DNA of 64,000 nucleotides from a virus. The notes beneath the pieces were generated by a model. The model was not told the DNA's origin. It worked only from the letters and a program-made list of their open reading frames with translations, and made no database searches. Numbering within the stretch: position 1 is the first letter of the stretch; each line of letters starts with the position of its first letter. This document shows positions 2,775 through 47,293 of this stretch, one piece after another. The translations under genes were made by a program, and so were the position numbers. The stretch lies in the IMG/VR virus record IMGVR_UViG_3300023184_003849, positions 1 through 64,000 of that record. The stretch is one strand, 5' to 3'.

Positions 2775-3433
2775 TAGAACAACTGGCATCAAGAGGATAT
2801 GGATATGGTTCTGGTATACTCAGCCCCAATCACAATCGTTTCTTGGTGAACATACCTAAAAATGCCAGTAGTTATATGTTGGATTGGGCCAATCGTCATG
2901 GCTGGACCAGTGCTGTGGTCGCTCAAAACAACAATATCAAAGAAATGGTTGTGTGTGTAAGAGATCCTGTTCAACGTTGGGTGTCAGGCGTAGGTCAATA
3001 TCTAACCAGTTACGTTTTAAACGTTACAGGTGCCTATAGTTGGGCAACCGGACCAGGACCAAATGACCAACAAATGTCAGCAGATAATTTTATCGCTAAT
3101 TATAATCCTGTGGTAGAACGATTATTGTTTGATAATCTTTCAAGGCTGGATGATCATGTTTGGCCACAGATAGAATTTTTTGAAAATCTGTTGCCCGCAG
3201 TTCCTAGAAAGTTTTTCTATATAGATCAAGACTTTGATCAGCGTATTGGCGAGTATCTTGGGTTCACACCAGTAGACAATCTAGATCGCAATCGTGCAGA
3301 TTCCAATCCTGACACACACAAAATTCAAACATTTATTCGTCACCGTCTAAATACCAGACCTGAACTAGAGCAAAGAGTGCGAAAGGCCTATGCTCGTGAC
3401 TATAAACTTATCCAAGAAGTATTCAACCAATGA
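2771..3433 (+). CDS. Sulfotransferase family protein
   Basis: NIPKNASS (5'-PSB-like) and VRDPVQRWVSG (3'-PB-like) motifs; YARDY tail. Confidence 0.7.
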   Translation: MIEQLASRGYGYGSGILSPNHNRFLVNIPKNASSYMLDWANRHGWTSAVVAQNNNIKEMVVCVRDPVQRWVSGVGQYLTSYVLNVTGAYSWATGPGPNDQQMSADNFIANYNPVVERLLFDNLSRLDDHVWPQIEFFENLLPAVPRKFFYIDQDFDQRIGEYLGFTPVDNLDRNRADSNPDTHKIQTFIRHRLNTRPELEQRVRKAYARDYKLIQEVFNQ

Positions 3434-37390: not shown

Positions 37391-37427
37391 ATTTTTACAA
37401 AAGGTAAATAAAAGTTCACACAAGGGG

Positions 37428-37456
37428 TTGACAAGGTATAAATAAACCTATACAAT
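37428..37456 (+). promoter_or_regulatory. Promoter of the tRNA island
   Basis: TTGACA-N17-TACAAT; TATAAATA within the spacer. Confidence 0.8.
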
Positions 37457-37462
37457 AAGCAC

Positions 37463-37609
37463 ATGATGAAACATTCCGCACATTATTCAAGACCAGTTTA
37501 TCAGAAGACGCTAAGTCTGGGCACATGCCCCGCCTTGTGGTCGGCAATTGAGAACATGAATAATGGTCGTGAATCAGACAACAATAGGGTCCAAGGAGAC
37601 AGAGTATAA
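37463..37609 (+). CDS. Putative attenuator leader peptide (48 aa, leaderless)
   Basis: MMKHSAHYSRPVYQKTLSLGTCPALWSAIENMNNGRESDNNRVQGDRV; ATG at predicted +1; stop inside antiterminator. Confidence 0.6.
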   Translation: MMKHSAHYSRPVYQKTLSLGTCPALWSAIENMNNGRESDNNRVQGDRV

Positions 37610-37639
37610 TTTAATACATACTCATACTTCAAAGACCCT
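37586..37639 (+). promoter_or_regulatory. Antiterminator hairpin
   Basis: AGGGTC/GACCCT, GGAG/CTTC, GAGTAT/ATACTC; shares GACCCT with the terminator. Confidence 0.65.
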
Positions 37640-37668
37640 GGATTAAAAACCCAGGGTTTTTTGTTTTT
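37631..37668 (+). terminator. Intrinsic terminator
   Basis: ACCCTGG/CCAGGGT stem followed by T-rich tract. Confidence 0.85.
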
Positions 37669-37681
37669 GATAAAGGAAAAA

Positions 37682-37837
37682 ATGACAGATACAAAATCTA
37701 AACGTCAGGCAGAATACACGCGACAGCACACACTAACCGAAGCAGATCTTCGCAAGATGATGGCAGAAAAGTTAGAACGTGCTCGAGCGTGGCATAATGC
37801 CCTTATCAAACGACGAGTTCTACAAGAGAACCGTTGA
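37682..37837 (+). CDS. Small basic helical protein (51 aa)
   Basis: AAGGA SD; MTDTKSKRQAEY...LQENR. Confidence 0.6.
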   Translation: MTDTKSKRQAEYTRQHTLTEADLRKMMAEKLERARAWHNALIKRRVLQENR

Positions 37838-37870: not shown

Positions 37871-38042
37871 AACACACTCTAAACAGTTGCAAATGGGCGG
37901 CCTCGGGGATGGAGTTCTTCTTGTAGAACAAAAAATCCGAGCGTATCGAAGCATATCAGTTGCCAAAGGCATCGTGCGGCCATTCAAGGTCGGGGTTTGT
38001 GATCTTGGTGTGCTTCGATACACACATTTGCAAGAGTGTGTT
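37871..38042 (+). ncRNA. Unnamed structured RNA 1
   Basis: AACACACTCT/AGAGTGTGTT, TTGCAAATG/CATTTGCAA, 16-bp GTATCGAAGCATATCA/TGGTGTGCTTCGATAC. Confidence 0.6.
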
Positions 38043-38045
38043 CAT

Positions 38046-38136
38046 ACCCTGGTGGCGAAATTGGCAGACGCACTTCTCTCAAAAGGAAGAAGGAAAAACA
38101 CCTAAGTTGTGAGTTCGAATCTCATCCAGGGTACCA
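38046..38136 (+). tRNA. tRNA-Leu(CAA)
   Basis: Cloverleaf, long V arm, CT-CAA-AA loop, ACCA. Confidence 0.9.
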
Positions 38137-38140
38137 TGTT

Positions 38141-38232
38141 GGAAGATAATGCAGGTGCGTTGGTGCGCCGACTGGCCTTGAAAACCAGGTTCCGAGAAAT
38201 CGGATGGGGTTCGACTCCTCTGTCTTCCGCCA
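38141..38232 (+). tRNA. tRNA-Ser(TGA)
   Basis: GGAAGAT/GTCTTCC, CT-TGA-AA, long V arm, GCCA; atypical D arm. Confidence 0.85.
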
Positions 38233-38238
38233 AGTTGT

Positions 38239-38312
38239 TCGGGAATAGTGTAATGGTAACACCACAGACTTTGACTCTGTTATTCTAGGTTCGAGCCCTA
38301 GTTCCCGTGCCA
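38239..38312 (+). tRNA. tRNA-Gln(TTG)
   Basis: ACAGA-CTTTGAC-TCTGT; GCCA. Confidence 0.92.
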
Positions 38313-38344
38313 AAACAACTGTTGTAAAAACGCAACAGCCAGCA

Positions 38345-38373
38345 TTGACCAATAATCCAGTTGATGCTACAAT
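38345..38373 (+). promoter_or_regulatory. Internal promoter
   Basis: TTGACC-N17-TACAAT. Confidence 0.7.
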
Positions 38374-38436
38374 AGAACTTAACAAAGCAACAAAGTAGAT
38401 CGCGACTGGTTGCACAAGATCTTTAAAATCAACAAA

Positions 38437-38627
38437 GAGGTTACCAGACCCGTTAGTGGCGTTGGTAGAGGTTGTGAGTGTACCGGCGGGTACACGCCTA
38501 CTACCAGTCATGAAGCCGGCTCTCCCCCTGGCGGGGTGATCCAGAAAAGCGGCGGATCGTCTGGCAGTAATGACCGTGGTGACTTGGCCTCGCAAGCCAA
38601 GCAGAACGAGATCCACAACGGTTCCTC
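38437..38627 (+). ncRNA. Unnamed structured RNA 2
   Basis: GAGG/CCTC closure; GTGTACC/GGTACAC, TGGTAG/CTACCA, CTTGGC/GCCAAG hairpins. Confidence 0.5.
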
Positions 38628-38642
38628 AATGTAAAACTACAT

Positions 38643-38718
38643 GCTCGGTTCATCTAGTGGCCCAGGATAGTGCCCTTTCACGGCATTCACACCGGTTCGA
38701 ATCCGGTACCGAGTACCA
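38643..38718 (+). tRNA. tRNA-Glu(TTC)
   Basis: GTGCC-CTTTCAC-GGCAT; ACCA. Confidence 0.92.
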
Positions 38719-38724
38719 AGGTTT

Positions 38725-38871
38725 TTATAGTCAAGCATCGATAAGGTATCGTGGCAGGACGCTGTCACTATGCGGGCCCAACCGGCCGGGAACGGGTCCT
38801 AATATAACTGCATCGGCTGTGGAACGGAAGCACCGGACTCCTAAATTGGCATTCTCGGTGCTTGACTATAA
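38725..38871 (+). ncRNA. Unnamed structured RNA 3
   Basis: 17-bp closing stem TTATAGTCAAGCATCGA/TCGGTGCTTGACTATAA. Confidence 0.6.
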
Positions 38872-38877
38872 GAATTT

Positions 38878-38952
38878 GGTCTCAAAGTGTTCATGGACGC
38901 ACACGAGCCTGTCACGCTCGAAGAAGGGGATCGTTACCCCTTGAGACCGCCA
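38878..38952 (+). tRNA. tRNA-Asp(GTC)
   Basis: CGAGC-CTGTCAC-GCTCG; GCCA; T loop ATCGTTA. Confidence 0.9.
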
Positions 38953-38957
38953 AGTTT

Positions 38958-39020
38958 GAAGCCACACCGCCTGGGCACTTCTCTCAGCAATGAGACACTA
39001 GGTCCTGCAACCGTGGCTTC
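38958..39020 (+). ncRNA. Structured element upstream of feoA-like gene
   Basis: GAAGCCAC/GTGGCTTC, CCTGG/CTAGG, CTCA-GCAA-TGAG. Confidence 0.4.
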
Positions 39021-39027
39021 TCCCTTT

Positions 39028-39294
39028 ATGGAGTTGACCGTGACTGATACATTACGAGACTTGTTGTCAGGTGCCTCAGCCATCATTGACCATGTTGCAG
39101 GCAATCACAGTTATAGCACAAGATTGCAGTCCATGGGATTTCAATCAGGACAAACTATTCGGGTTCTCAGAAGAACCGCTCATGTCATGCATGTTCGCGT
39201 GGGTAGTACTGAGTGGGCCATACGTGATCAAGATGCAGAATTAGTAAAAATTATTCCGGAAAACCCGAGCAAGGTGCATGGGCGTGACTGTTAA
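39028..39294 (+). CDS. feoA: FeoA (SH3-like) domain protein
   Basis: RLQSMGF..G..I.V.R...HVRVG...AIR; stop lies inside tRNA-Asn. Confidence 0.7.
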   Translation: MELTVTDTLRDLLSGASAIIDHVAGNHSYSTRLQSMGFQSGQTIRVLRRTAHVMHVRVGSTEWAIRDQDAELVKIIPENPSKVHGRDC

Positions 39295-39333
39295 TCACTG
39301 GTTAGAAGGGTTCGATTCCCTTATCCGGAGCCA
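39255..39333 (+). tRNA. tRNA-Asn(GTT)
   Basis: GTGA-CTGTTAA-TCAC; TCCGGA acceptor; GCCA. Confidence 0.85.
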
Positions 39334-39337
39334 AATT

Positions 39338-39412
39338 GCCTCTGTAGTATAATGGATAATACACTGGTCTACGAAGCCGGGAATTGTGGTTCAATTCCAT
39401 ACAGAGGCTCCA
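39338..39412 (+). tRNA. tRNA-Arg(ACG)
   Basis: CT-ACG-AA loop; TCCA. Confidence 0.9.
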
Positions 39413-39417
39413 TTCAT

Positions 39418-39491
39418 GCCCCTTTAGTTTAAAAGTAAAACAGACGCTTGATAAGCGTCAGTCGGAGGAGCGTTACCTCCCGGGGGTACCA
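39418..39491 (+). tRNA. tRNA-Ile(GAT)
   Basis: GACGC-TTGATAA-GCGTC; T loop AGCGTTA; ACCA. Confidence 0.82.
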
Positions 39492-39511
39492 GTTTTTAAA
39501 AGGAGAATGCG

Positions 39512-39640
39512 ATGAAACGCAAGATGACCGTCAGGCAACGTAACCCCTTCGTTGCATTGGCTATGAAAAGAAAAGCGGGTAGCCATCGAAAAACCAACAA
39601 AGAGGTTCGTCGATTAGATAAAATGCGAGGCTATAGTTAA
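39512..39640 (+). CDS. Small basic protein (42 aa), weakly ArfA-like
   Basis: AAGGAG SD; RNPFVALAMKRKAGSHRK; stop inside tRNA-Lys. Confidence 0.65.
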   Translation: MKRKMTVRQRNPFVALAMKRKAGSHRKTNKEVRRLDKMRGYS

Positions 39641-39702
39641 GCGGTTATAACATCACCCTTTTAAGGTGTAAGACCTCGGTTCGAATCCGAGTGGCCCTAC
39701 CA
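39627..39702 (+). tRNA. tRNA-Lys(TTT)
   Basis: CACC-CTTTTAA-GGTG; ACCA. Confidence 0.88.
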
Positions 39703-39806
39703 TATGAAAACACATTGTGGCGAGTTTATGAGTAGCCTGGGAACACGGCAGTAGACCCAATATGTCATAACGTTAGCCTGATATCAGCAATGTGTTTCCA
39801 TATGGT
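39699..39806 (+). ncRNA. Unnamed structured RNA 4 bridging tRNA-Lys and tRNA-His
   Basis: ACCATATG/CATATGGT and AAACACATTG/CAATGTGTTT. Confidence 0.55.
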
Positions 39807-39878
39807 GTCCATAGTTTAGTGGCAAAACCGCGGGTTGTGATTCCGCTATCATGAGTTCGATTCTCATTGGATACCCCA
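39804..39878 (+). tRNA. tRNA-His(GTG)
   Basis: G-1, TT-GTG-AT loop, C73, CCA. Confidence 0.92.
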
Positions 39879-39879
39879 A

Positions 39880-39954
39880 GGATGAGTAGCATAATGGCAG
39901 TGCGCCTCCTTCATACGGAGTAAGGTGGTAGTTCGACTCTACCTTCATCCACCA
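39880..39954 (+). tRNA. tRNA-Met(CAT), elongator
   Basis: CTCC-TTCATAC-GGAG; paired 1-72; ACCA. Confidence 0.88.
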
Positions 39955-39964
39955 AAATAGTTTT

Positions 39965-40041
39965 GCCCTGGTAACCGAATTGGTATAGGTACTGGTCTTA
40001 GAAACCAGGTTCTGAGAGTTCGAGTCTCTCCTAGGGCACCA
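39965..40041 (+). tRNA. tRNA-Leu(TAG), short variable loop
   Basis: CTGGT-CTTAGAA-ACCAG; 77 nt. Confidence 0.88.
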
Positions 40042-40051
40042 CGTAGTTTAT

Positions 40052-40125
40052 GTCTTGTAAGTGTTACGGTAGCACATCAGTCTCCAAAACTGAGGGCTGG
40101 GGTTCGACTCCCTAACGAGACGCCA
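40052..40125 (+). tRNA. tRNA-Trp(CCA)
   Basis: TCAGT-CTCCAAA-ACTGA; GCCA. Confidence 0.9.
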
Positions 40126-40130
40126 AATCG

Positions 40131-40204
40131 GGGCTGGTAGTTAAATGGGATAACGGTGGCTTTGCAAGCCTCAGTTGGGAGTTCGATTCTCCCTCGGTCC
40201 ACCA
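40131..40204 (+). tRNA. tRNA-Ala(TGC)
   Basis: G3-U70; TT-TGC-AA loop. Confidence 0.9.
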
Positions 40205-40211
40205 AAAATTC

Positions 40212-40299
40212 GGAGGTATCGCATAGCGGTCGATTGCACGGGACTGTAAATCCTGCGCCCTACGGGGCCTCGGTGGTTCAAATCCATCTACCTCCACCA
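40212..40299 (+). tRNA. tRNA-Tyr(GTA)
   Basis: CT-GTA-AA; long V arm; ACCA. Confidence 0.92.
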
Positions 40300-40302
40300 C
40301 TT

Positions 40303-40376
40303 GCCTCGTTCGTCTAATGGTAGGGCCGCGTGTTTACACCGCGCAGACGGCAGTTCGATTCTGTCACGAGGTACCA
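40303..40376 (+). tRNA. tRNA-Val(TAC)
   Basis: GCGTG-TTTACAC-CGCGC. Confidence 0.9.
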
Positions 40377-40405
40377 TTGACACACAATAGATAATTGTGT
40401 ATAAT
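40377..40405 (+). promoter_or_regulatory. Internal promoter
   Basis: TTGACA-N17-TATAAT; spacer CACAAT/ATTGTG inverted repeat. Confidence 0.85.
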
Positions 40406-40424
40406 ACATGTAAATAGAAACAAC

Positions 40425-40502
40425 GCAACGGTGGCAGAGTGGTCCAATGCATGGGATTGCAAATCCCAAAAGCCGCTGGTTCAAATCCAGCCCGTTGCTC
40501 CA
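40425..40502 (+). tRNA. tRNA-Cys(GCA)
   Basis: TGGGA-TTGCAAA-TCCCA; U73. Confidence 0.92.
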
Positions 40503-40507
40503 AACGT

Positions 40508-40757
40508 TCCAGCGTCACTGGATACTCTGGTCCCAGAGGATGAGAAGTGTGATGACACACACGGGCGGTTCTGAAGAGTCAAATCTTCACAGTAGAGATA
40601 CTGCGGTCTAGCCTCAACCGGCGTTGGCAATACGAGAACTGATCCCTGTCGAGAAGCGGGTGGAGGCCGTGTGTGATGGTATATGAGAAAGACGGCGTAA
40701 TGGCACGAAAACTTGTATGCTTGATGCGGTATAATTACCGCCGGGGGACGCAGAGCA
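40508..40757 (+). ncRNA. Unnamed pseudoknotted RNA 5 (about 250 nt)
   Basis: CTCTG-GTCCC/GGGAC-G-CAGAG, CACACACGG/CCGTGTGTG, crossing GGCGGT/ACCGCC. Confidence 0.55.
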
Positions 40758-40774
40758 TATATTAGGAGAATTAT

Positions 40775-40927
40775 ATGCCAATGTATGAAACAACTGTGAG
40801 AACACCACAAGGTGAAGAAAAGAAAAAAATCTATGCGGACACACCGCAAGAGGCTAAGAAACTTTTTGAACAACTGTACGGTGGTCCAAGAGCAGTTCCG
40901 TATATTCCACATATTATTCCAAGTTAA
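40775..40927 (+). CDS. Small hypothetical protein (50 aa)
   Basis: AGGAG SD; MPMYETTVRTPQGEEK... Confidence 0.7.
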   Translation: MPMYETTVRTPQGEEKKKIYADTPQEAKKLFEQLYGGPRAVPYIPHIIPS

Positions 40928-40931
40928 TTAC

Positions 40932-41006
40932 CGCGGGGTGGAGAAGTAGTATCTCACTAGGCTCATAACCTAGAGATCGGCGGTGCGATTCCGCCTCCCG
41001 CAACCA
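40932..41006 (+). tRNA. tRNA-fMet(CAT), initiator
   Basis: CGCGGGG start, C1:A72 mismatch, CT-CAT-AA. Confidence 0.88.
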
Positions 41007-41010
41007 ATCA

Positions 41011-41084
41011 GCCCCTATAGTTAAATGGCAGAACATCGGTTTTGTAATCCGAGGACGGGAGTTCGATTCTCTCTAGGGGCACCA
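41011..41084 (+). tRNA. tRNA-Thr(TGT)
   Basis: TT-TGT-AA loop; ACCA. Confidence 0.9.
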
Positions 41085-41107
41085 ATTTGAATAAGGAATT
41101 TTTCATT

Positions 41108-41812
41108 ATGAGATGTTTGGAAGAAATTCAAAAAGATAATTTACCAATAATTGTATTAGGGTCTTGTTTGAGTTTGCCCACTATAATCGAATCATGTGAG
41201 GCTTCTGGAAGAAAAATCATTGCAATAATTGATAATGATTATGTTGATCAAACAAACATGTATGGATTTCCAGTTTTTCAGGAATCTTGGCTTGATTCTA
41301 TAGAAACAACTCATTATGAATTTTTTATTGCTTCAGTTTGGACCCCAGGAAATCATGTTGTTACAAAACGTAGCAATAATAAAAGAGATCATTATATCAA
41401 TTTAATGCAAATTAAAAAATTAACAGGAGCAACAATAATTCATCCTAGTTGTGTGATTTCACCAAATGCATTGATCGGGAGGAATGTAAGAATTGGAGCA
41501 ATGACTGTGGTAGTTCATGGGACAGAAATCCATGATCACGTGCTGATCAAAGAACAGTGTTATATAAGTCACGACGTGAAAATTGGAAAAAATTCAGTAA
41601 TACAAATCAAAGCCTGCATCACTGGCCATGTACACATTGGAGCAAATACCTATATTGGAGTAGGCTCTACAATAATGCATCGCGTTCAATCAGCCGCCCC
41701 GACAATCATTGGTGACAATGTACTTGTTCATCCGAAATTGTTGGTCATTCAAGATTTGCCTAATGATTCTGTTGCCAGTTTGAAAAATAAAAAATATTCA
41801 AGAATCTTTTAA
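41108..41812 (+). CDS. NeuD/PglD-like hexapeptide-repeat acetyltransferase
   Basis: IIHPSCVISPNALIG, SHD, hexapeptide repeats; AT-rich. Confidence 0.8.
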   Translation: MRCLEEIQKDNLPIIVLGSCLSLPTIIESCEASGRKIIAIIDNDYVDQTNMYGFPVFQESWLDSIETTHYEFFIASVWTPGNHVVTKRSNNKRDHYINLMQIKKLTGATIIHPSCVISPNALIGRNVRIGAMTVVVHGTEIHDHVLIKEQCYISHDVKIGKNSVIQIKACITGHVHIGANTYIGVGSTIMHRVQSAAPTIIGDNVLVHPKLLVIQDLPNDSVASLKNKKYSRIF

Positions 41813-42061
41813 ATCGTTTTGCAATTTTTTTAAATGAGAGAATCTTTTCATACGATTATAAATTTTGATTACGCCACGAGCGGCATGTTCCGGAAAAAAA
41901 ATAGGAAAAATTGCATGGATAAAACTACTCAATGACAAAAATAAAAGATGACCGCTATTGGTCAAACTATGTTTTAAATGATACCAATATGTCATTCGAC
42001 TATTTTCAAGATGAATTTTTGTGCTAATCATTGTATAATATTTATTTGATTTTTTGTACAA
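41798..42061 (-). CDS. Small hypothetical membrane protein
   Basis: HLE...TYWYHL...IHAIFP; start uncertain. Confidence 0.6.
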   Translation of the reverse strand: MYKKSNKYYTMISTKIHLENSRMTYWYHLKHSLTNSGHLLFLSLSSFIHAIFPIFFPEHAARGVIKIYNRMKRFSHLKKLQNDLKDS

Positions 42062-42092
42062 TACAAAAATTAACTTTTTAATAGGAGTGTAA

Positions 42093-42341
42093 ATGCTAGA
42101 TTATATCATTACTTTTATTGCAGTATTTGCCACTGATTTGATCTACATTCTTTTTGTAAAATCAATTCAAGACAATCAGCCTTGGCGTGCCGCATGGTGG
42201 TCAATGGTTTGTACGCTCACAGCCTCAGTGGCTGTAATCAACTACACTGAAAATCACTTGGCCTTGATTCCAGCCCTGGCAGGTGCCTTCTTTGGTGCCT
42301 ATGTAGGCATGAAATACAAGAAAAAAATCATCTCCGATTAG
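42093..42341 (+). CDS. Small membrane protein
   Basis: AGGAG SD; 3 hydrophobic segments; stop inside tRNA-Pro. Confidence 0.75.
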   Translation: MLDYIITFIAVFATDLIYILFVKSIQDNQPWRAAWWSMVCTLTASVAVINYTENHLALIPALAGAFFGAYVGMKYKKKIISD

Positions 42342-42407
42342 TATAGCCTGGTAGTACCCGTGGTTTGGGACCATGAAGCGGGAGTTCAAATCTCTCATCG
42401 GAGACCA
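42332..42407 (+). tRNA. tRNA-Pro(TGG)
   Basis: CGTGG-TTTGGGA-CCATG; ACCA. Confidence 0.92.
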
Positions 42408-42577
42408 TAAGCGTTGTATCAAGCACAAACTCACGTGGAGGATTTATCAGTTGAGGATCTGGTACAAAGTCTCTGCGCACAGTAAAATACCCATGCTCTT
42501 GATAAACGCCTTCGGCAGCCACACGATACAATGCTTCAATGCCATGCTCGTTGTCATATTTCATAGACCTATTTATT

Positions 42578-42653
42578 CTGGCGTTAGTATAATGGATCAA
42601 TACAGCGGGCTTCTACCCCGCGAATGTGGGTTCGATTCCTGCACGCCGGACCA
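42578..42653 (+). tRNA. tRNA-Arg(TCT)
   Basis: GCGGG-CTTCTAC-CCCGC. Confidence 0.9.
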
Positions 42654-42676
42654 CAGTTAAATAAAAGAAAGCACTT

Positions 42677-43150
42677 ATGAAGAAGATCAATCTAGACGAA
42701 GTAAAAGCGTTTATTGAAAAGCAAACTCCAGAGACCAAAATCTACTTGGGTTGCGACTCTGAACGTCTCAAAATCAACGGTGTCTGGCATGCTGATTATG
42801 TGCTGGCCATTGTGGTTCACATCAACGGCAACAACGGTTGCAAACTGTTTGGAGAAATTCAACGTGAACGAGACTGGGATCAAAAAGCCAGCCGGCCATC
42901 TATGCGACTAATGAATGAAGTGTACAAAATCAGCGAATTGTATCTAAAACTTCATGAAGTGTTAGAGGGTAGAGATGTCGAAGTTCATTTGGACATCAAC
43001 CCCGACGAACATCACGGATCAAGTTGTGTTATCAGCCAGGCTGTGGGTTACATCAAAGGTACCTGCAATGTCATACCTTTTGTCAAGCCTGATGCTTTTG
43101 CAGCCAGTTACGCCGCAGATCGTTTCAAAGGTCTCTCAAAAGTTGCATAG
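42677..43150 (+). CDS. RNase H-like YkuK-family protein
   Basis: IYLGCDS, RLMNEV, VHLDIN, ASYAAD. Confidence 0.8.
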   Translation: MKKINLDEVKAFIEKQTPETKIYLGCDSERLKINGVWHADYVLAIVVHINGNNGCKLFGEIQRERDWDQKASRPSMRLMNEVYKISELYLKLHEVLEGRDVEVHLDINPDEHHGSSCVISQAVGYIKGTCNVIPFVKPDAFAASYAADRFKGLSKVA

Positions 43151-43157
43151 AACAACC

Positions 43158-43233
43158 GCGGATGAAGTGTTTTGGGTTACACGTCAGTCTTCCAAACTGA
43201 AATAGACGAGTTCGAATCTCGCCTTCCGCTCCA
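43158..43233 (+). tRNA. tRNA-Gly(TCC)
   Basis: TCAGT-CTTCCAA-ACTGA; U73. Confidence 0.9.
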
Positions 43234-43236
43234 GAA

Positions 43237-43265
43237 TTGACAACACACTGAGTTTGTTGTATAAT
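43237..43265 (+). promoter_or_regulatory. Internal promoter
   Basis: TTGACA-N17-TATAAT. Confidence 0.85.
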
Positions 43266-43274
43266 TACATTGAA

Positions 43275-43364
43275 GGAACGGTCCCATAATGGTATTGGAG
43301 CAGATTGCTAATCTGTCGGCTGGTTTAATCCGGCTTCGGGGTTCAAGTCCCCGTCGTTCCGCCA
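43275..43364 (+). tRNA. tRNA-Ser(GCT)
   Basis: GCAGA-TTGCTAA-TCTGT; long V arm; GCCA. Confidence 0.92.
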
Positions 43365-43370
43365 GACAAT

Positions 43371-43445
43371 GCGGCTATGGCGTAGTAGGAAACGCATGTG
43401 CTTGCCAAGCATAAGTCACGAGTTCGACCCTCGTTAGCCGCTCCA
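43371..43445 (+). tRNA. tRNA-Gly(GCC)
   Basis: TGTGC-TTGCCAA-GCATA. Confidence 0.9.
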
Positions 43446-43452
43446 GGTTGAG

Positions 43453-43637
43453 TAAAGAAAGCGTGTTAGAAACTCATTGACGATGGGCCCAACTATCAGG
43501 GACACTACGTTAATCCAGAGCCGCTGAACGGGCGAGAGCCGCGGTAGACTGCCAGTCACAGTCGTGTCATGCTTCTGGAGGGACGGGAGTGCAGAGATGT
43601 ATTCCGCACCCTTAAACACAAGATAGTGCTTTCTTTA
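43453..43637 (+). ncRNA. Unnamed structured RNA 6 (185 nt)
   Basis: TAAAGAAAGCG/TGCTTTCTTTA closure; TCCAGA/TCTGGA; GGAGTGCA-GAGA-TGTATTCC. Confidence 0.55.
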
Positions 43638-43644
43638 TTTCATT

Positions 43645-43718
43645 GCTCTTGTAGTTAAGTGGCATAACGAATCCATGGTAAGGATTAATCGACAGTTCGA
43701 TTCTGTACTAGAGCACCA
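43645..43718 (+). tRNA. tRNA-Thr(GGT)
   Basis: AATCC-ATGGTAA-GGATT. Confidence 0.88.
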
Positions 43719-43719
43719 T

Positions 43720-44421
43720 TTATTTCACAGTGGCTAGACGCAGAGTCTTGAGGATGCAGATGTACATCCAGCCTATGTCAAATTCAAACCAGCGTTGACT
43801 TAGACGAGGGCTTGCTGGGTCTAAGTGATGATTGTTGTGCAGTTCTTCCCCGCCAATCACAACGCCCCAGGGAATGATGTTTCTACTGAGGTCTCGAGTT
43901 TCGCCATTGCGATAGCCCCACCAGTGTGCTAGACCGTTGATCACACCAGCGGCCCAGAATGGAATCCATATCATCTGTATGCCCCAGATTATGGCGCCAA
44001 CCCAACCAAAGAGCCAGAGGTTGAGCACAAGGAAAATGCCAATGCCAAATCTACTGTGAGGAGTGTATATGTTGCGCTCCAGCCAATCAGCAGGAGTGCC
44101 GCGACCATATGTGCTAACCATATCTTTATCTTTTGATGCTTCATGATACAATATTGCTCCTTGAAATAACACTTGCCAGATTCCATACACATAAGGGCTA
44201 TGCGGATCACCTGCACAGTCACTGTATCTATGATGCTTGCGGTGTATGGCCACCCACTGACGTGTGATCATGCCTGTGGTGAGCCATAACCAAAATCGCA
44301 TGAAGTGTTCTATTAGGGGATGAAATGTTACAGATCGATGTGCTTGTGATCTATGCAGATACAGCGTGACGCAGGCTATGGTGATATGTGTTACTGTTAA
44401 AGTGTATAAGATTTCTGTCAT
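43720..44421 (-). CDS. Fatty acid (delta-9 type) desaturase
   Basis: HRSQAH, HRKHH and HNNHH histidine boxes. Confidence 0.93.
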   Translation of the reverse strand: MTEILYTLTVTHITIACVTLYLHRSQAHRSVTFHPLIEHFMRFWLWLTTGMITRQWVAIHRKHHRYSDCAGDPHSPYVYGIWQVLFQGAILYHEASKDKDMVSTYGRGTPADWLERNIYTPHSRFGIGIFLVLNLWLFGWVGAIIWGIQMIWIPFWAAGVINGLAHWWGYRNGETRDLSRNIIPWGVVIGGEELHNNHHLDPASPRLSQRWFEFDIGWMYICILKTLRLATVK

Positions 44422-44438
44422 TGCTTACTTATCCACAG

Positions 44439-44513
44439 CGGCCCTTAGTTCAATGGATAGAATACGTGGCTTCGAACCATGTGGTGGGAGTTCGATTCTC
44501 TCAGGGCCGGCCA
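44439..44513 (+). tRNA. tRNA-Arg(TCG)
   Basis: CGTGG-CTTCGAA-CCATG; GCCA. Confidence 0.9.
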
Positions 44514-45593: not shown

Positions 45594-45669
45594 GCCCCTT
45601 AAACTAATCTAGTGAAAGTGCAGGACTGAAAATCCTGAAAGCCAGGAGCGTAACCTGGAGGGGGCACCA
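45594..45669 (+). tRNA. tRNA-Phe(GAA)
   Basis: CAGGA-CTGAAAA-TCCTG; T loop AGCGTAA. Confidence 0.85.
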
Positions 45670-46075: not shown

Positions 46076-46291
46076 ATGCGACCAGCAATGATTTGGATTT
46101 TGAGTTTCAGCGTATTGGGTCCTGAGCCGCACTATCAAGAAATACCCAAGTTCACCAGTCGCGAACAATGTGAAGCGGCCCTGCAACAAAAACGTGAAGA
46201 GTATCGTGCCCAGCGTAAACAGATTGCGGGCACTTGTACACAAAGCACTCAAAGTGCGCCCAAACAAACGCCAAGCATGCCGGCTCATTAA
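46076..46291 (+). CDS. Small hypothetical protein
   Basis: AGGA SD; F.SREQCEAA..C. Confidence 0.6.
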   Translation: MRPAMIWILSFSVLGPEPHYQEIPKFTSREQCEAALQQKREEYRAQRKQIAGTCTQSTQSAPKQTPSMPAH

Positions 46292-46294
46292 TGG

Positions 46295-46323
46295 TTGACA
46301 AATAACTAAAATGAATATATAAT
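46295..46323 (+). promoter_or_regulatory. tmRNA promoter
   Basis: TTGACA-N17-TATAAT. Confidence 0.85.
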
Positions 46324-46328
46324 AACGA

Positions 46329-46669
46329 GAACAGCGTAAACTGTTATTGAGAAAAGGATTCTGGACGCGGGTGCGAATCCCGCCAGGTCCACCAAAAGAA
46401 TATTTATGATTGAAGCAATTGGATTTTTTGTTACATTGTTAGTTTTAATGTGGATAGCAACAATCTTGGGTGAAATATTTTTTTGATGGGCCTGATATAG
46501 ATTCGACAGGGTCAAGAGTAAAAGTAATGGCGCTCGGCAATGTAGAAGCCGTTAGGGTTGGGGATTCCCGGCCGAAGACACAAAAAACGTAAATGCAAAC
46601 GACGAACAGTTCGCTTTGGCAGCCTAAACACTGCCTAGGGTAGGAAATACCTCGTAACAGAAACCACCA
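46329..46669 (+). ncRNA. ssrA: Circularly permuted two-piece tmRNA
   Basis: T arm plus CAGGTCCACCA (to 46394) precedes GGGCCTG..ATTCGAC (46488); G3-U70; tag ANDEQFALAA* at 46595-46627. Confidence 0.93.
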
Positions 46670-46694
46670 AGCCCACTTCGGTGGGCTTTTTCTT
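46669..46694 (+). terminator. Intrinsic terminator after tmRNA
   Basis: AAGCCCAC-TTCG-GTGGGCTT plus T tract. Confidence 0.9.
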
Positions 46695-46708
46695 GGCTAA
46701 ATATCGGC

Positions 46709-47293
46709 ATGATAGTTTATATTCACGGTGCCAGTGCCACCGCCGAAAGTTTCACACACATAAGAGAATACGTCAGAGAGCATACAGAACTGCCAGATAC
46801 TGCCTTGGAATACAAAAGCGATGATGGGTTTGATAACAATCTTGGTCGCATGATGGGTCAACTGGATGAGGCCGAACGGCTGTTCTTTGTAAGTCACAGC
46901 CTGGGTGGTATCTATGCCTTGTACTTGGCCAATCACTATCGTGACCGCACCCTGGGTGGTGTGAGCCTAAGCACACCCTATGGCGGAAGCAAACAGGCTG
47001 ACTTTGCCAGATACTTTTTGCCATTCAATCAACTCATGAAAGACGTGGGCACTATGAGTGAGCCCATGGCAGAATCTCGTAGACTGCCAGCACCACCTAA
47101 CTGGACCAATGTTGTGACCACTGTGGGCGACAGTCCTTGGATTGTTGAACCCAATGACGGGGTAGTGACCTTGGCCAGCATGAGATATCGCAAAGACTTT
47201 GAACTGGTAGAATTGCCACTCAATCACTATGAAGTTGTGCTGAGCAATCAAGTGGTGCGACTGATCTTGGACCGGATTCAGCAGGCCTTATGA
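46709..47293 (+). CDS. Alpha/beta hydrolase
   Basis: YIHG, SHSLGG, STPYGGS, NDGVV, NH. Confidence 0.85.
   Translation: MIVYIHGASATAESFTHIREYVREHTELPDTALEYKSDDGFDNNLGRMMGQLDEAERLFFVSHSLGGIYALYLANHYRDRTLGGVSLSTPYGGSKQADFARYFLPFNQLMKDVGTMSEPMAESRRLPAPPNWTNVVTTVGDSPWIVEPNDGVVTLASMRYRKDFELVELPLNHYEVVLSNQVVRLILDRIQQAL

Follow-up and report, generated by a model that had tools for sequence, protein, structure and literature searches.

The window, by which we mean the whole 64,000-nt stretch of viral DNA that was analysed (positions 1 to 64,000 of the IMG/VR record IMGVR_UViG_3300023184_003849), carries an array of phage tRNA genes, and at the head of this array lies a compact module consisting of a promoter, a short leader ORF, a long hairpin, and an intrinsic terminator. 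The 121.8-kb record contains this module once, and a comparison of DNA similarity with GenBank phages gave no match. The features of the module, and of the genes that follow it, are these:

37428..37456, + strand: sigma-70-type promoter, TTGACA (37428-33), 17-nt spacer, and TACAAT (37451-56), 11/12 on promoter scoring
37466..37609, + strand: leader ORF of 47 codons plus TAA (37607-09), without a Shine-Dalgarno sequence, from the ORF list and the comparison of relatives
37519..37540, + strand: small hairpin within the leader frame, GGGC/GCCC (37519-30), from RNAalifold, and after it GCCTTGTGG (37532-40), which is invariant
37586..37639, + strand: putative antiterminator hairpin P1-P2-P3, RNAalifold consensus
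37586-91 with 37634-39, + strand: P1, AGGGTC with GACCCT, read from the sequence
37595-98 with 37627-30, + strand: P2, GGAG with CTTC, read from the sequence
37602-07 with 37618-23, + strand: P3, GAGTAT with ATACTC, read from the sequence
37635..37668, + strand: intrinsic terminator, ACCCTGG (37635-41) with CCAGGGT (37651-57), 9-nt loop, and T-rich tail TTTTTTGTTTTT, from folding
37682..37837, + strand: 51-codon ORF with a Shine-Dalgarno sequence and no promoter-like site of its own, the first gene after the terminator
37875..38312, + strand: further cargo ahead of the promoter-like site at 38345, comprising the next four entries
about 37875-38045, + strand: conserved non-coding stretch
38046-38136, + strand: tRNA-Leu(CAA)
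38141-38228, + strand: long tRNA-like gene
38239-38312, + strand: tRNA-Gln

The promoter is present as the first-pass annotation had described it. The same annotation started the ORF at the ATG at 37463, and the ORF scan of the window does contain that frame (37463..37609, 48 codons, ending in TAA), likewise without a Shine-Dalgarno sequence; however, just 3 of the 12 g1/g2 versions described below retain this first ATG, whereas all 12 retain the second, at 37466, and for this reason the conserved frame is taken to have 47 codons. The transcript is predicted to start at the ATG or a few nt before it, the likely start leaving 2-3 nt ahead of the ATG in 9 of these 12 versions, so that the leader ORF would be leaderless or nearly so.

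The module was found in 18 distinct DNA versions from uncultured freshwater giant-phage contigs, which fall into three subgroups, g1 to g3: the window, 11 further g1/g2 versions (these two subgroups thus counting 12 together), and six g3 versions. Scans of viral contigs by hairpin pattern, by peptide alignment, and by a looser hairpin pattern each returned the same four contigs, and a further pattern scan returned 22 stretches, namely the four known ones, eight new leader loci (six distinct sequences), and ten that were dropped as chance matches in repetitive coding sequence, unrelated to the module. The -35 box, the 17-nt spacer, and the -10 box are kept in 12/12 g1/g2 and 6/6 g3 versions, and immediately upstream of the -35 box the loci already differ from one another. 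From the -10 box to the ATG the distance is 9 nt in g1/g2; in g3 it is 7 nt, which puts the start 2 nt nearer with the frame to the stop still kept. A Shine-Dalgarno sequence is missing from all 18. A search of RNA runs gave nine, each with a share of sampled words of 0.14 or less, and a 213-nt assembled RNA-run contig from a relative covers 37416-37608, promoter included, the four runs examined being assembled contigs of relatives that cannot show transcript ends, strand, or level.

In its length changes, which are in frame, and in its pN/pS below 1, the leader frame shows signs of translation. It is open in 18/18 DNA versions and in 8/8 database proteins of 40-47 aa, its lengths are 40, 41, 42, 43, 44, 45, and 47 codons with every difference in frame, and the other two frames contain stops in the five sequences examined. 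Over codons 1-40 of the first 12 versions pN/pS is 0.32, between subgroups it ranges from 0.33 to 0.67 (the latter for g1-g3), and for the window against g2 pS is 0.29-0.50 and pN 0.08-0.17. Leader length is therefore roughly conserved, as had been proposed, at 40-47 codons. The poor peptide conservation proposed along with it holds for the N-terminal half, which drifts, but not for the C-terminus or for the core motif GTCxALW, which is kept in 22 aligned peptides. This conserved motif counts against the attenuator reading given below, since a pure ribosome-transit sensor does not require it.

Purifying selection of this kind (pN/pS 0.3) and a core motif shared by 22 aligned peptides are what one would expect of an ordinary small gene, whose product of 47 residues would function in its own right, whose terminator ends a short mRNA, and whose constant leak feeds the downstream ORF and the first tRNAs, the hairpin serving to stabilise the 3' end or to tune the terminator. 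Gene callers do predict a protein here in public assemblies, and in the window the lowest free energy belongs to the terminator fold. Against such a gene, searches of Pfam, PHROGs, and the ESM Atlas assign the leader peptide to no family, and AlphaFold2 returned one helix of low confidence for the 22 aligned leader peptides (pLDDT 58, pTM 0.24), a result too weak to weigh either way. Neighbouring small ORFs carry a Shine-Dalgarno sequence, which the leader ORF lacks, and a g1-g3 comparison shows the peptide drifting (pN/pS 0.67) and nucleotide blocks staying fixed, synonymous sites included. Nor would an ordinary gene need its last codons to pair with the terminator 5' arm, or that pairing to be re-established in g3, as described next; we judge this explanation rather unlikely.

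Comparison of the versions gives signs that the hairpin arms are under RNA-level constraint. Synonymous divergence is 0.03 in the last seven codons versus 0.33 upstream (first 12 versions), and across comparisons pS is 0.00-0.20 there versus 0.05-0.49 upstream. RNAalifold picks the long P1-P2-P3 hairpin unprompted as the consensus, and variable columns make up 5 of 36 paired positions versus 11 of 23 unpaired ones (Fisher P = 0.007). Counting pairs by column on the MAFFT alignment was given up, since a 1-nt indel put g3 out of register. In the covariance-model alignment (18 versions, 17 distinct rows), which was fitted to the model and is biased in favour of it, paired cells amount to 98%; one hairpin pair has changed on both sides (AU:11, UA:3, GU:1, UG:1), and the covariation score is 0.070 versus 0.037 in shuffles, a value reached by 0/500 of them. 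One version (L100) breaks one P2 pair. Since P1-P3 are nearly invariant, the support comes from one covarying pair and from the placement of the variation. The DNA-level hairpin comparison covers the 18 DNA versions, leaving aside the two most divergent proteins, P0007 and P0008.

The terminator was absent from the pattern-scan output because its loop has 9 nt, and folding recovers it. Its stem and T run are retained in 18/18 versions. Five variants of the stem occur in the relatives, and all keep the pairing via changes on both arms, so that the covarying stems foreseen in the first-pass annotation are borne out on the terminator side, where the arms change together, and amount to the single pair on the antiterminator side. 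The three pairs of hairpin arms listed by that annotation were all found at their positions, as was the exclusion between hairpin and terminator: the terminator 5' arm (37635-41) begins within the P1 3' arm (37634-39), and because the P1 helix and the terminator both use 37635-39 the two folds are mutually exclusive. The shared segment has changed in g3, where it still pairs with two partners that have changed too, the P1 5' arm and the terminator 3' arm; the overlap is kept in 18/18 versions and is larger in g3.

The two folds are near-equal in energy across versions, the antiterminator-minus-terminator difference ranging from -1.5 to +4.3 kcal/mol in the 12 g1/g2 versions and from -0.1 to -2.8 kcal/mol in the six g3 versions. 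For free RNA of the window, the terminator plus an inner hairpin is favoured by 4.3 kcal/mol, P1 having only 6 bp, and on this modelling the window's own switch may lean strongly towards stopping. The stop codon (37607-09) sits at the P3/loop junction, 26 nt upstream of the terminator stem, and lies within P3 in 18/18 versions; when folding is repeated with a ribosome-covered state, a ribosome placed at the stop would cover P1-P3 and leave the terminator free. A trp-style 1:2 anti-antiterminator was looked for, and the RNAalifold consensus fold offers no upstream partner for the P1 5' arm, showing just the small hairpin at 37519-30 there, so untranslated RNA would read through.

Phage early transcripts are cut at hairpins of this general kind, and the whole hairpin here, a stem of some 18-20 bp interrupted by internal loops, stands at the boundary between leader mRNA and tRNA precursor, where cutting by, for example, a double-strand-specific RNase would split the two. 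The overlap with the terminator would then be accidental, which sits poorly with its retention in 18/18 versions and its enlargement in g3, and the fixed position of the stop codon within P3 also speaks against it; such a processing site appears highly improbable.

We favour, at somewhat better than even chances, a ribosome-mediated transcription attenuator with a leaderless leader ORF, placed at the head of the phage tRNA array, a reading drawn from sequence comparison and folding. Its geometry, that is, a promoter, a leader ORF, an antiterminator overlapping a terminator, and tRNA genes behind, had been proposed from the window and proved to be conserved in 18/18 versions. In such an attenuator, the strong promoter would yield RNA that starts at or within a few nt of the leader ATG and is translated leaderlessly. 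The last seven codons and the stop codon would make up the 5' side of P1-P2-P3, and the 3' side would hold the terminator 5' arm. A ribosome that kept pace with RNA polymerase until the leader was finished would cover the 5' side of the hairpin, leaving the shared segment to pair with the terminator 3' arm, and transcription would stop at about 37657-62. Were the ribosome missing, late, or held up before about codon 36, P1-P2-P3 would form first and hold the shared segment, and polymerase would continue into the small ORF, the conserved non-coding RNA, and the first tRNA genes, so that output would rise with slow translation. Four parts of this scheme are ones that we infer: the transcript start, the translation of the ORF, the timing of ribosome and polymerase, and the response of read-through to stalling.

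Inside the ORF, RNAalifold pairs the columns of the small hairpin at 37519-30 (4-5 bp, one covarying pair, AU:6 and GC:3), and the GCC TTG TGG that follows is unchanged in 18/18 versions, synonymous sites included; together, 37519..37540 might mark a pause of RNA polymerase or act as another signal in the RNA, the pause being a guess. Blocks invariant at synonymous sites (this one, and that from the P1 arm to the terminator) would also suit a small regulatory RNA, in which the terminated transcript of about 200 nt is the product, possibly coding too, its single-stranded stretches pairing with targets and read-through being incidental. A promoter, about 195 nt, and a terminator are the usual layout of small RNAs, and there is a precedent in the Sinorhizobium trp attenuator, whose RNA and leader peptide are both reported to act in trans (PMC6614838, PMC7298713). 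No Rfam match was found, however, and a small RNA leaves the in-frame length changes and the fixed ATG spacing unexplained. It is also compatible with an attenuator rather than exclusive of it; as an account of the module, we regard it as improbable.

What the proposed attenuator would control can be read from the genes behind the terminator. The 51-codon ORF is conserved in two relatives (L090 and L091), and its product has no match in Pfam, PHROGs, or the ESM Atlas. In g3, the non-coding stretch starts about 30 to 52 nt after the terminator in the four loci L108, L113, L115, and L106. Same-strand tRNA genes lie downstream in 10/10 g1/g2 loci with enough downstream sequence, the first within 67-424 nt in nine of them and behind two inserted ORFs in the tenth (L094), and in 7/7 g3 loci with at least 1 kb of downstream sequence. 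In the window, L100, and L108, no promoter-like site was found between the terminator and the first tRNAs, so these tRNAs would need read-through. The internal promoter-like sites noted earlier at 38345, 40377, and 43237 are present, and as strong promoters they mean that only the first segment of the array can depend on the element.

A further question is what the leader might sense. The recount of the window leader agrees with the first-pass figures, giving 37 different codons, against an expectation of 33.4 for uniform sampling (put earlier at about 33), and every amino acid except Phe, 19 in all; no single amino acid has its codons in a run. Compared with 4272 real 47-codon windows from the phage's own genes, this codon count is unusual (P = 0.005), and the choice of synonymous codons given the peptide is not clearly so (P = 0.056). 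The high codon diversity predicted for relatives replicates in two subgroups: in g1 the 47 codons include 37-41 different ones, and most g1 leaders carry all 20 amino acids; in g3 the 42 codons include 36-38 different ones, and no amino acid is missing (compared with windows from real genes, P of 0.002 or less for codons and 0.014 for amino acids; given the peptide, P 0.001-0.023), with Lys gone from codon 2 in g3 but present at another position. It is weak in g2 (P 0.013-0.2), whose leaders lack Phe, mostly lack Ile and Pro, and sometimes lack Lys or Gln. All 20 amino acids occur in 10/22 peptides. These results are not independent trials because the versions are related.

On this basis the leader could be a general gauge of decoding capacity, built from a maximal number of different codons and, in most versions, from one or two copies of each of the 20 amino acids. 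If anticodon nucleases or starvation took away almost any one host tRNA or amino acid, the ribosome would be held up ahead of the hairpin and the phage tRNAs would be transcribed. This pan-codon sensor, proposed in the first-pass annotation, is a tentative idea that we would sooner doubt than adopt: the near-maximal codon diversity and the full amino acid set of g3 and most g1 leaders agree with it, but g2 does not follow, and no match to the phage tRNA set emerged. If it is true, the need for single copies of each residue would explain part of the purifying selection on the peptide. Separately, the idea that the leader codons mirror the phage tRNA set was tried and not supported, with 38/47 readable where real windows average 35.0 (P = 0.20) and, with relaxed wobble, 42/47 (P = 0.30), no better than background. 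In one g2 locus (L084), the array has only nine tRNAs, and the leader uses many amino acids without a tRNA there.

Leader-peptide attenuators are known for the trp, his, leu, thr, ilv, and phe operons. The present element resembles them in its promoter-proximal short ORF, its intrinsic terminator ahead of the regulated genes, its antiterminator sharing a strand with the terminator, and an end-of-leader ribosome that would mask the antiterminator 5' side. It differs in that it has no codon run for a single amino acid and no 1:2 anti-antiterminator that we could find, in that its leader lacks a Shine-Dalgarno sequence, is probably leaderless, and is long (40-47 codons), and in that the genes regulated here would be phage tRNA and other RNA genes. 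The narrow trp/his-type class is marked by a cluster of regulatory codons, and here 37 of the 47 codons are distinct.

Parallels can also be drawn with other systems. The bmrB-bmrCD system of Bacillus subtilis, a ribosome-mediated transcriptional attenuation of a cellular drug-efflux operon, likewise combines a small ORF with alternative stem-loops and an intrinsic terminator and, like the present model, is described as induced by general impairment of protein synthesis, not by shortage of one amino acid (PMC4191407); there the terminator lies inside the ORF, whereas the phage element would control RNA genes, is predicted to be leaderless, and has unusually diverse codons. In mycobacteria, leaderless polycysteine short ORFs are described as attenuators and are, as here, the first element of the transcript, which in mycobacteria is polycistronic, but they sense one amino acid through Cys runs, unlike the phage leader (bioRxiv 10.1101/834739). 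The trn operon of Anabaena PCC 7120 is an accessory tRNA array described as induced by translational stress, and is similar to the phage array in being switched on by impaired translation (PMC8421152, PMC10272220), though it is cellular; in PMC8421152 the terms attenuat*, leader peptide, and terminator have 0 occurrences.

Discussion of phage tRNA arrays themselves usually casts them as a steady addition to the host pool or as decoys for defences that cut tRNAs (PMC10264068), and their regulation has been little studied. A limited literature search, which does not prove absence, found no comparable control of phage tRNA genes. If the attenuator reading is true, a module of only about 240 nt, conserved in an abundant group of lake phages, would let the phage measure the state of translation and respond by making its own tRNAs, and the classic logic of attenuation, so far that of amino-acid operons, would extend to RNA genes and work through a leaderless ORF.

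The window is taken from an IMG/VR virus record of 121.8 kb, of which it makes up the initial 64 kb. CheckV reports a completeness of 35%, suggesting a genome of roughly 350 kb, and the window DNA gave no match to GenBank phages. According to ARAGORN it carries 26 tRNA genes, 24 of them within 38046-44513, an array that also contains several consensus sigma-70-type promoters, and it encodes a tmRNA as well. The element discussed here lies ahead of this array and is single-copy in the 121.8-kb record. All the features listed for it by the first-pass annotation were recovered when the sequence was read again:

37428-56, + strand: promoter, TTGACA, 17 nt, TACAAT
ATG 37463 to TAA 37607-09, + strand: leader ORF, without a Shine-Dalgarno sequence
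37586-91/37634-39 (P1), 37595-98/37627-30 (P2), 37602-07/37618-23 (P3), + strand: hairpin, candidate antiterminator, three arm pairs all present by direct reading
37635-41/37651-57 and T run, + strand: terminator, by direct reading and folding

Five bases, the shared segment, are common to the 3' arm of P1 and the 5' arm of the terminator. The terminator escaped a pattern scanner solely on account of its 9-nt loop, and the minimum-energy fold of the free RNA consists of the inner hairpin and the terminator, without P1.

Further along the window, the phage-borne tmRNA gene (46281-46718, tag peptide ANDEQFALAA) scores 119 and 121 bits on the betaproteobacterial and permuted tmRNA models. A perfect consensus promoter (46295-46323) falls within the program-called tmRNA span, which opens at 46281/46302, and sits shortly ahead of the match to the permuted model, which begins at 46332. 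Rfam calls three tRNA-like genes (38141-38228, 39418-39488, and 45594-45666) that ARAGORN misses. Only the tRNA-Sec model scores on the first of them, a long one, with 39 bits, under threshold.

The upstream phosphoesterase gene served as a handle to fetch 80 related loci, only four of which have the element, so that the gene order around it varies. Metagenome contigs scanned with a peptide pattern yielded 11 loci, a nucleotide pattern built on the conserved ORF core yielded 8 more, belonging to a third, more distant subgroup, and a protein search returned eight predicted proteins of 40-47 residues, none of them named. After removal of identical copies, 18 distinct versions were left, namely g1 (window, L090, L091), g2 (L092-L100), and g3 (L102, L103, L106, L108, L113, L115), where the L numbers denote loci on freshwater giant-phage contigs.

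The -35 box, the 17-nt spacer, and the -10 box occur in 18/18 versions, and upstream of the -35 box the sequence differs from locus to locus; on this comparison, the promoter is part of the module. The -10 box precedes the ATG by 9 nt in all 12 g1/g2 versions and by 7 nt in all six g3 versions. Transcription usually starts 6-8 nt after the -10 box, and this rule puts the predicted 5' end of the RNA at the ATG or 2-3 nt ahead of it. The start codon itself has to be revised, as the ATG at 37463 chosen in the first pass is kept in only 3 of 12 versions, while a second ATG, at 37466, is found in 12/12 g1/g2 versions. No Shine-Dalgarno sequence precedes the leader ATG, in contrast to the small ORFs that come shortly after the leader, where the motif is clear. 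The leader frame is open in 18/18 versions, stops abound in both alternative frames of the five sequences inspected, and the lengths seen (40, 41, 42, 43, 44, 45, and 47 codons) imply that indel sizes are always divisible by three. Over codons 1-40 of the first 12 versions, pS is 0.33 and pN 0.11 (ratio 0.32, Nei-Gojobori), with between-subgroup pN/pS of 0.33 (g1-g2), 0.67 (g1-g3), and 0.61 (g2-g3). Judged by these patterns, the ORF evolves like one that is translated. The main rival explanation is a small gene followed by a leaky terminator, which we consider rather unlikely.

Constraint is not spread evenly along the leader. Its N-terminal half drifts, with codon 2 highly variable. Almost no change is seen in GGC..TGC...GCC TTG TGG, and the part GCC TTG TGG is the same in 18/18 versions even at synonymous sites, which points to a reason at the RNA or DNA level. 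A regulatory RNA would be one such reason and could coexist with attenuation, but we regard it as improbable, and less likely than the small gene with a leaky terminator. At 37519-37540 of the window, a small hairpin in which one pair covaries leads into GCCTTGTGG, invariant in 18/18 versions, synonymous sites included; our guess is that the two form a polymerase pause signal.

In the last seven leader codons synonymous divergence goes down to 0.03, and within 37585-37640 variable columns number 5/36 among paired positions vs 11/23 among unpaired ones (Fisher P = 0.007), with G-U keeping the pairing in three of the five. RNAalifold returns P1-P2-P3 as the consensus fold on both short and full-length alignments. 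In a covariance-model alignment of all 18 versions, an alignment fitted to the structure and made of related sequences, 98% of cells pair, one P1 pair is altered on both sides (AU:11, UA:3, GU:1, UG:1), and the covariation score is 0.070, reached by 0/500 shuffles, vs 0.037 shuffled. The arms hardly vary and so leave little room for covariation, and one P2 pair is broken in L100. The terminator stem exists as five sequence variants, with pairing intact in all. In g3 the shared segment has changed and pairs both with a changed, longer P1 5' arm, giving a P1 of about 11 bp with two bulges that spans the entire terminator 5' arm, and with a terminator 3' arm that has changed as well. Of the signs that selection maintains the competition of the two folds, this agreement among three segments is the strongest. 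That the conserved structure is instead a processing site seems very improbable, again less likely than the leaky terminator.

For the energies, one arm was blocked at a time, the 3' arm of the terminator or the 5' arm of P1, and the remainder was folded. The antiterminator minus terminator difference runs from -1.5 to +4.3 kcal/mol in g1/g2, the window being the extreme at +4.3 kcal/mol, with a P1 of 6 bp rather than 7-8 because one G is missing; in g3 the antiterminator is the stabler by 0.1 to 2.8 kcal/mol. When bases through 10 nt past the stop codon are blocked to imitate a ribosome that is terminating, the terminator is the sole structure left.

Behind the terminator, a same-strand tRNA gene follows the T run by 378 nt in the window and within 67-424 nt in L090, L091, L092, L093, L095, L098, L099, and L100. 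In L094 the tRNA stands at about 2.1 kb, after an insert (815-2657) of two ORFs, one of 483 residues that looks like a radical-SAM protein and one of 134 residues. The g3 module is followed by tRNA arrays in L103, L106, L108, L113, L114, L115, and L117 (188-1377 nt); the L096, L097, and L102 sequences end too soon to judge. In the window, L100, and L108, the stretch from the terminator to the first tRNAs contains no promoter-like site, so that these genes need either read-through or transcripts that start further upstream. In L100 only a 15-codon ORF with a Shine-Dalgarno sequence separates terminator and tRNA-Ser, and in L108 tRNA-Leu, Phe, and Gln sit between the terminator and the next promoter.

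Several features of this region vary. The g2 loci have tRNA-Ser(TGA) shortly behind the terminator (for example L100, 3261-3348), a possible counterpart of the long tRNA-like gene at 38141-38228 of the window; blastn gave no hit in L100. The 15-codon ORF (L100 3208-3255; also L093, L095, L098, L099), with a strong Shine-Dalgarno sequence and two Trp codons, fills the space between terminator and tRNA-Ser, ends 8 nt short of the tRNA, and might be a second small leader. Where L091 carries tRNA-Leu(CAA), L090 has a shorter tRNA (3133-3209), called Trp(CCA) by ARAGORN, whose spacing from the terminator is roughly that of tRNA-Leu(CAA) in the window; either the anticodon may have changed or the gene may have been replaced. 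A conserved non-coding stretch without an Rfam match precedes tRNA-Leu(CAA) (window 37875-38045; L108 13286-13489; L113 4934-5000) and in g3 lies directly behind the leader's terminator, without the 51-codon ORF of g1.

The first-pass annotation had also remarked on the codon diversity of the leader, and 37 distinct codons in 47 are indeed unusual (P = 0.005 against 4272 real windows from the phage's own genes; P = 0.003 by independent sampling), with synonym choice given the peptide borderline (P = 0.056). The other g1 leaders have 39 (L090) and 41 (L091) in 47, and those of g3 36-38 in 42 (P ≤ 0.002 vs real windows, 0.0003-0.009 vs uniform use of 61 codons, 0.001-0.023 given the peptide), L108 repeating solely ATG, TGG, CAT, and GCC. 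In g2 the count is 31-34 in 40-43 (P 0.013-0.2), and the peptides are without Phe and mostly without Ile and Pro. All 20 amino acids occur in 10/22 peptides (three g3 in the alignment, three further g3 versions, L090, L091, and the related database proteins P0005 and P0008); the presence of all 20 within 42 residues has P = 0.014 in real windows. As the versions share ancestry, they count as two or three partly independent observations at most, and we judge the signal real but not decisive. Leader codons match the phage's own tRNAs no better than background, and the array of the g2 locus L084 (4598-7244), which lies on a 108.7-kb contig and has only 9 tRNA genes, does not mirror its leader. 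The g1 and g3 relatives have >20, and the g2 leaders are those with reduced amino-acid and codon diversity, a parallel that, with L084 the one array wholly seen, is an anecdote.

A limited literature search found no description of an attenuator ahead of phage tRNA genes. In its geometry the element has what defines leader-peptide attenuators, but it lacks the codon run, a narrow criterion, of the trp/his systems, and no trp-type 1:2 element was found in it. Among the systems compared, the closest functional parallel is bmrB-bmrCD of Bacillus subtilis, where translation of a small ORF with alternative stem-loops lets ribosome-targeting antibiotics induce the downstream genes (PMC4191407). Attenuator ORFs that are leaderless have been reported from mycobacteria (10.1101/834739). 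The accessory tRNA array of Anabaena is likewise induced by translational stress (PMC8421152, PMC10272220), but direct repeats and a repressor control it at its promoter, in a paper that does not mention attenuation (PMC8421152).

On balance, we lean toward a ribosome-mediated attenuator as the best fit to the parts of the element and their conservation. That it senses any depleted tRNA, as first proposed, is a tentative extension. The accompanying caveat holds, in that a second promoter comes next (38345 in the window) and only the first segment of the tRNA array can be under the control of the element.
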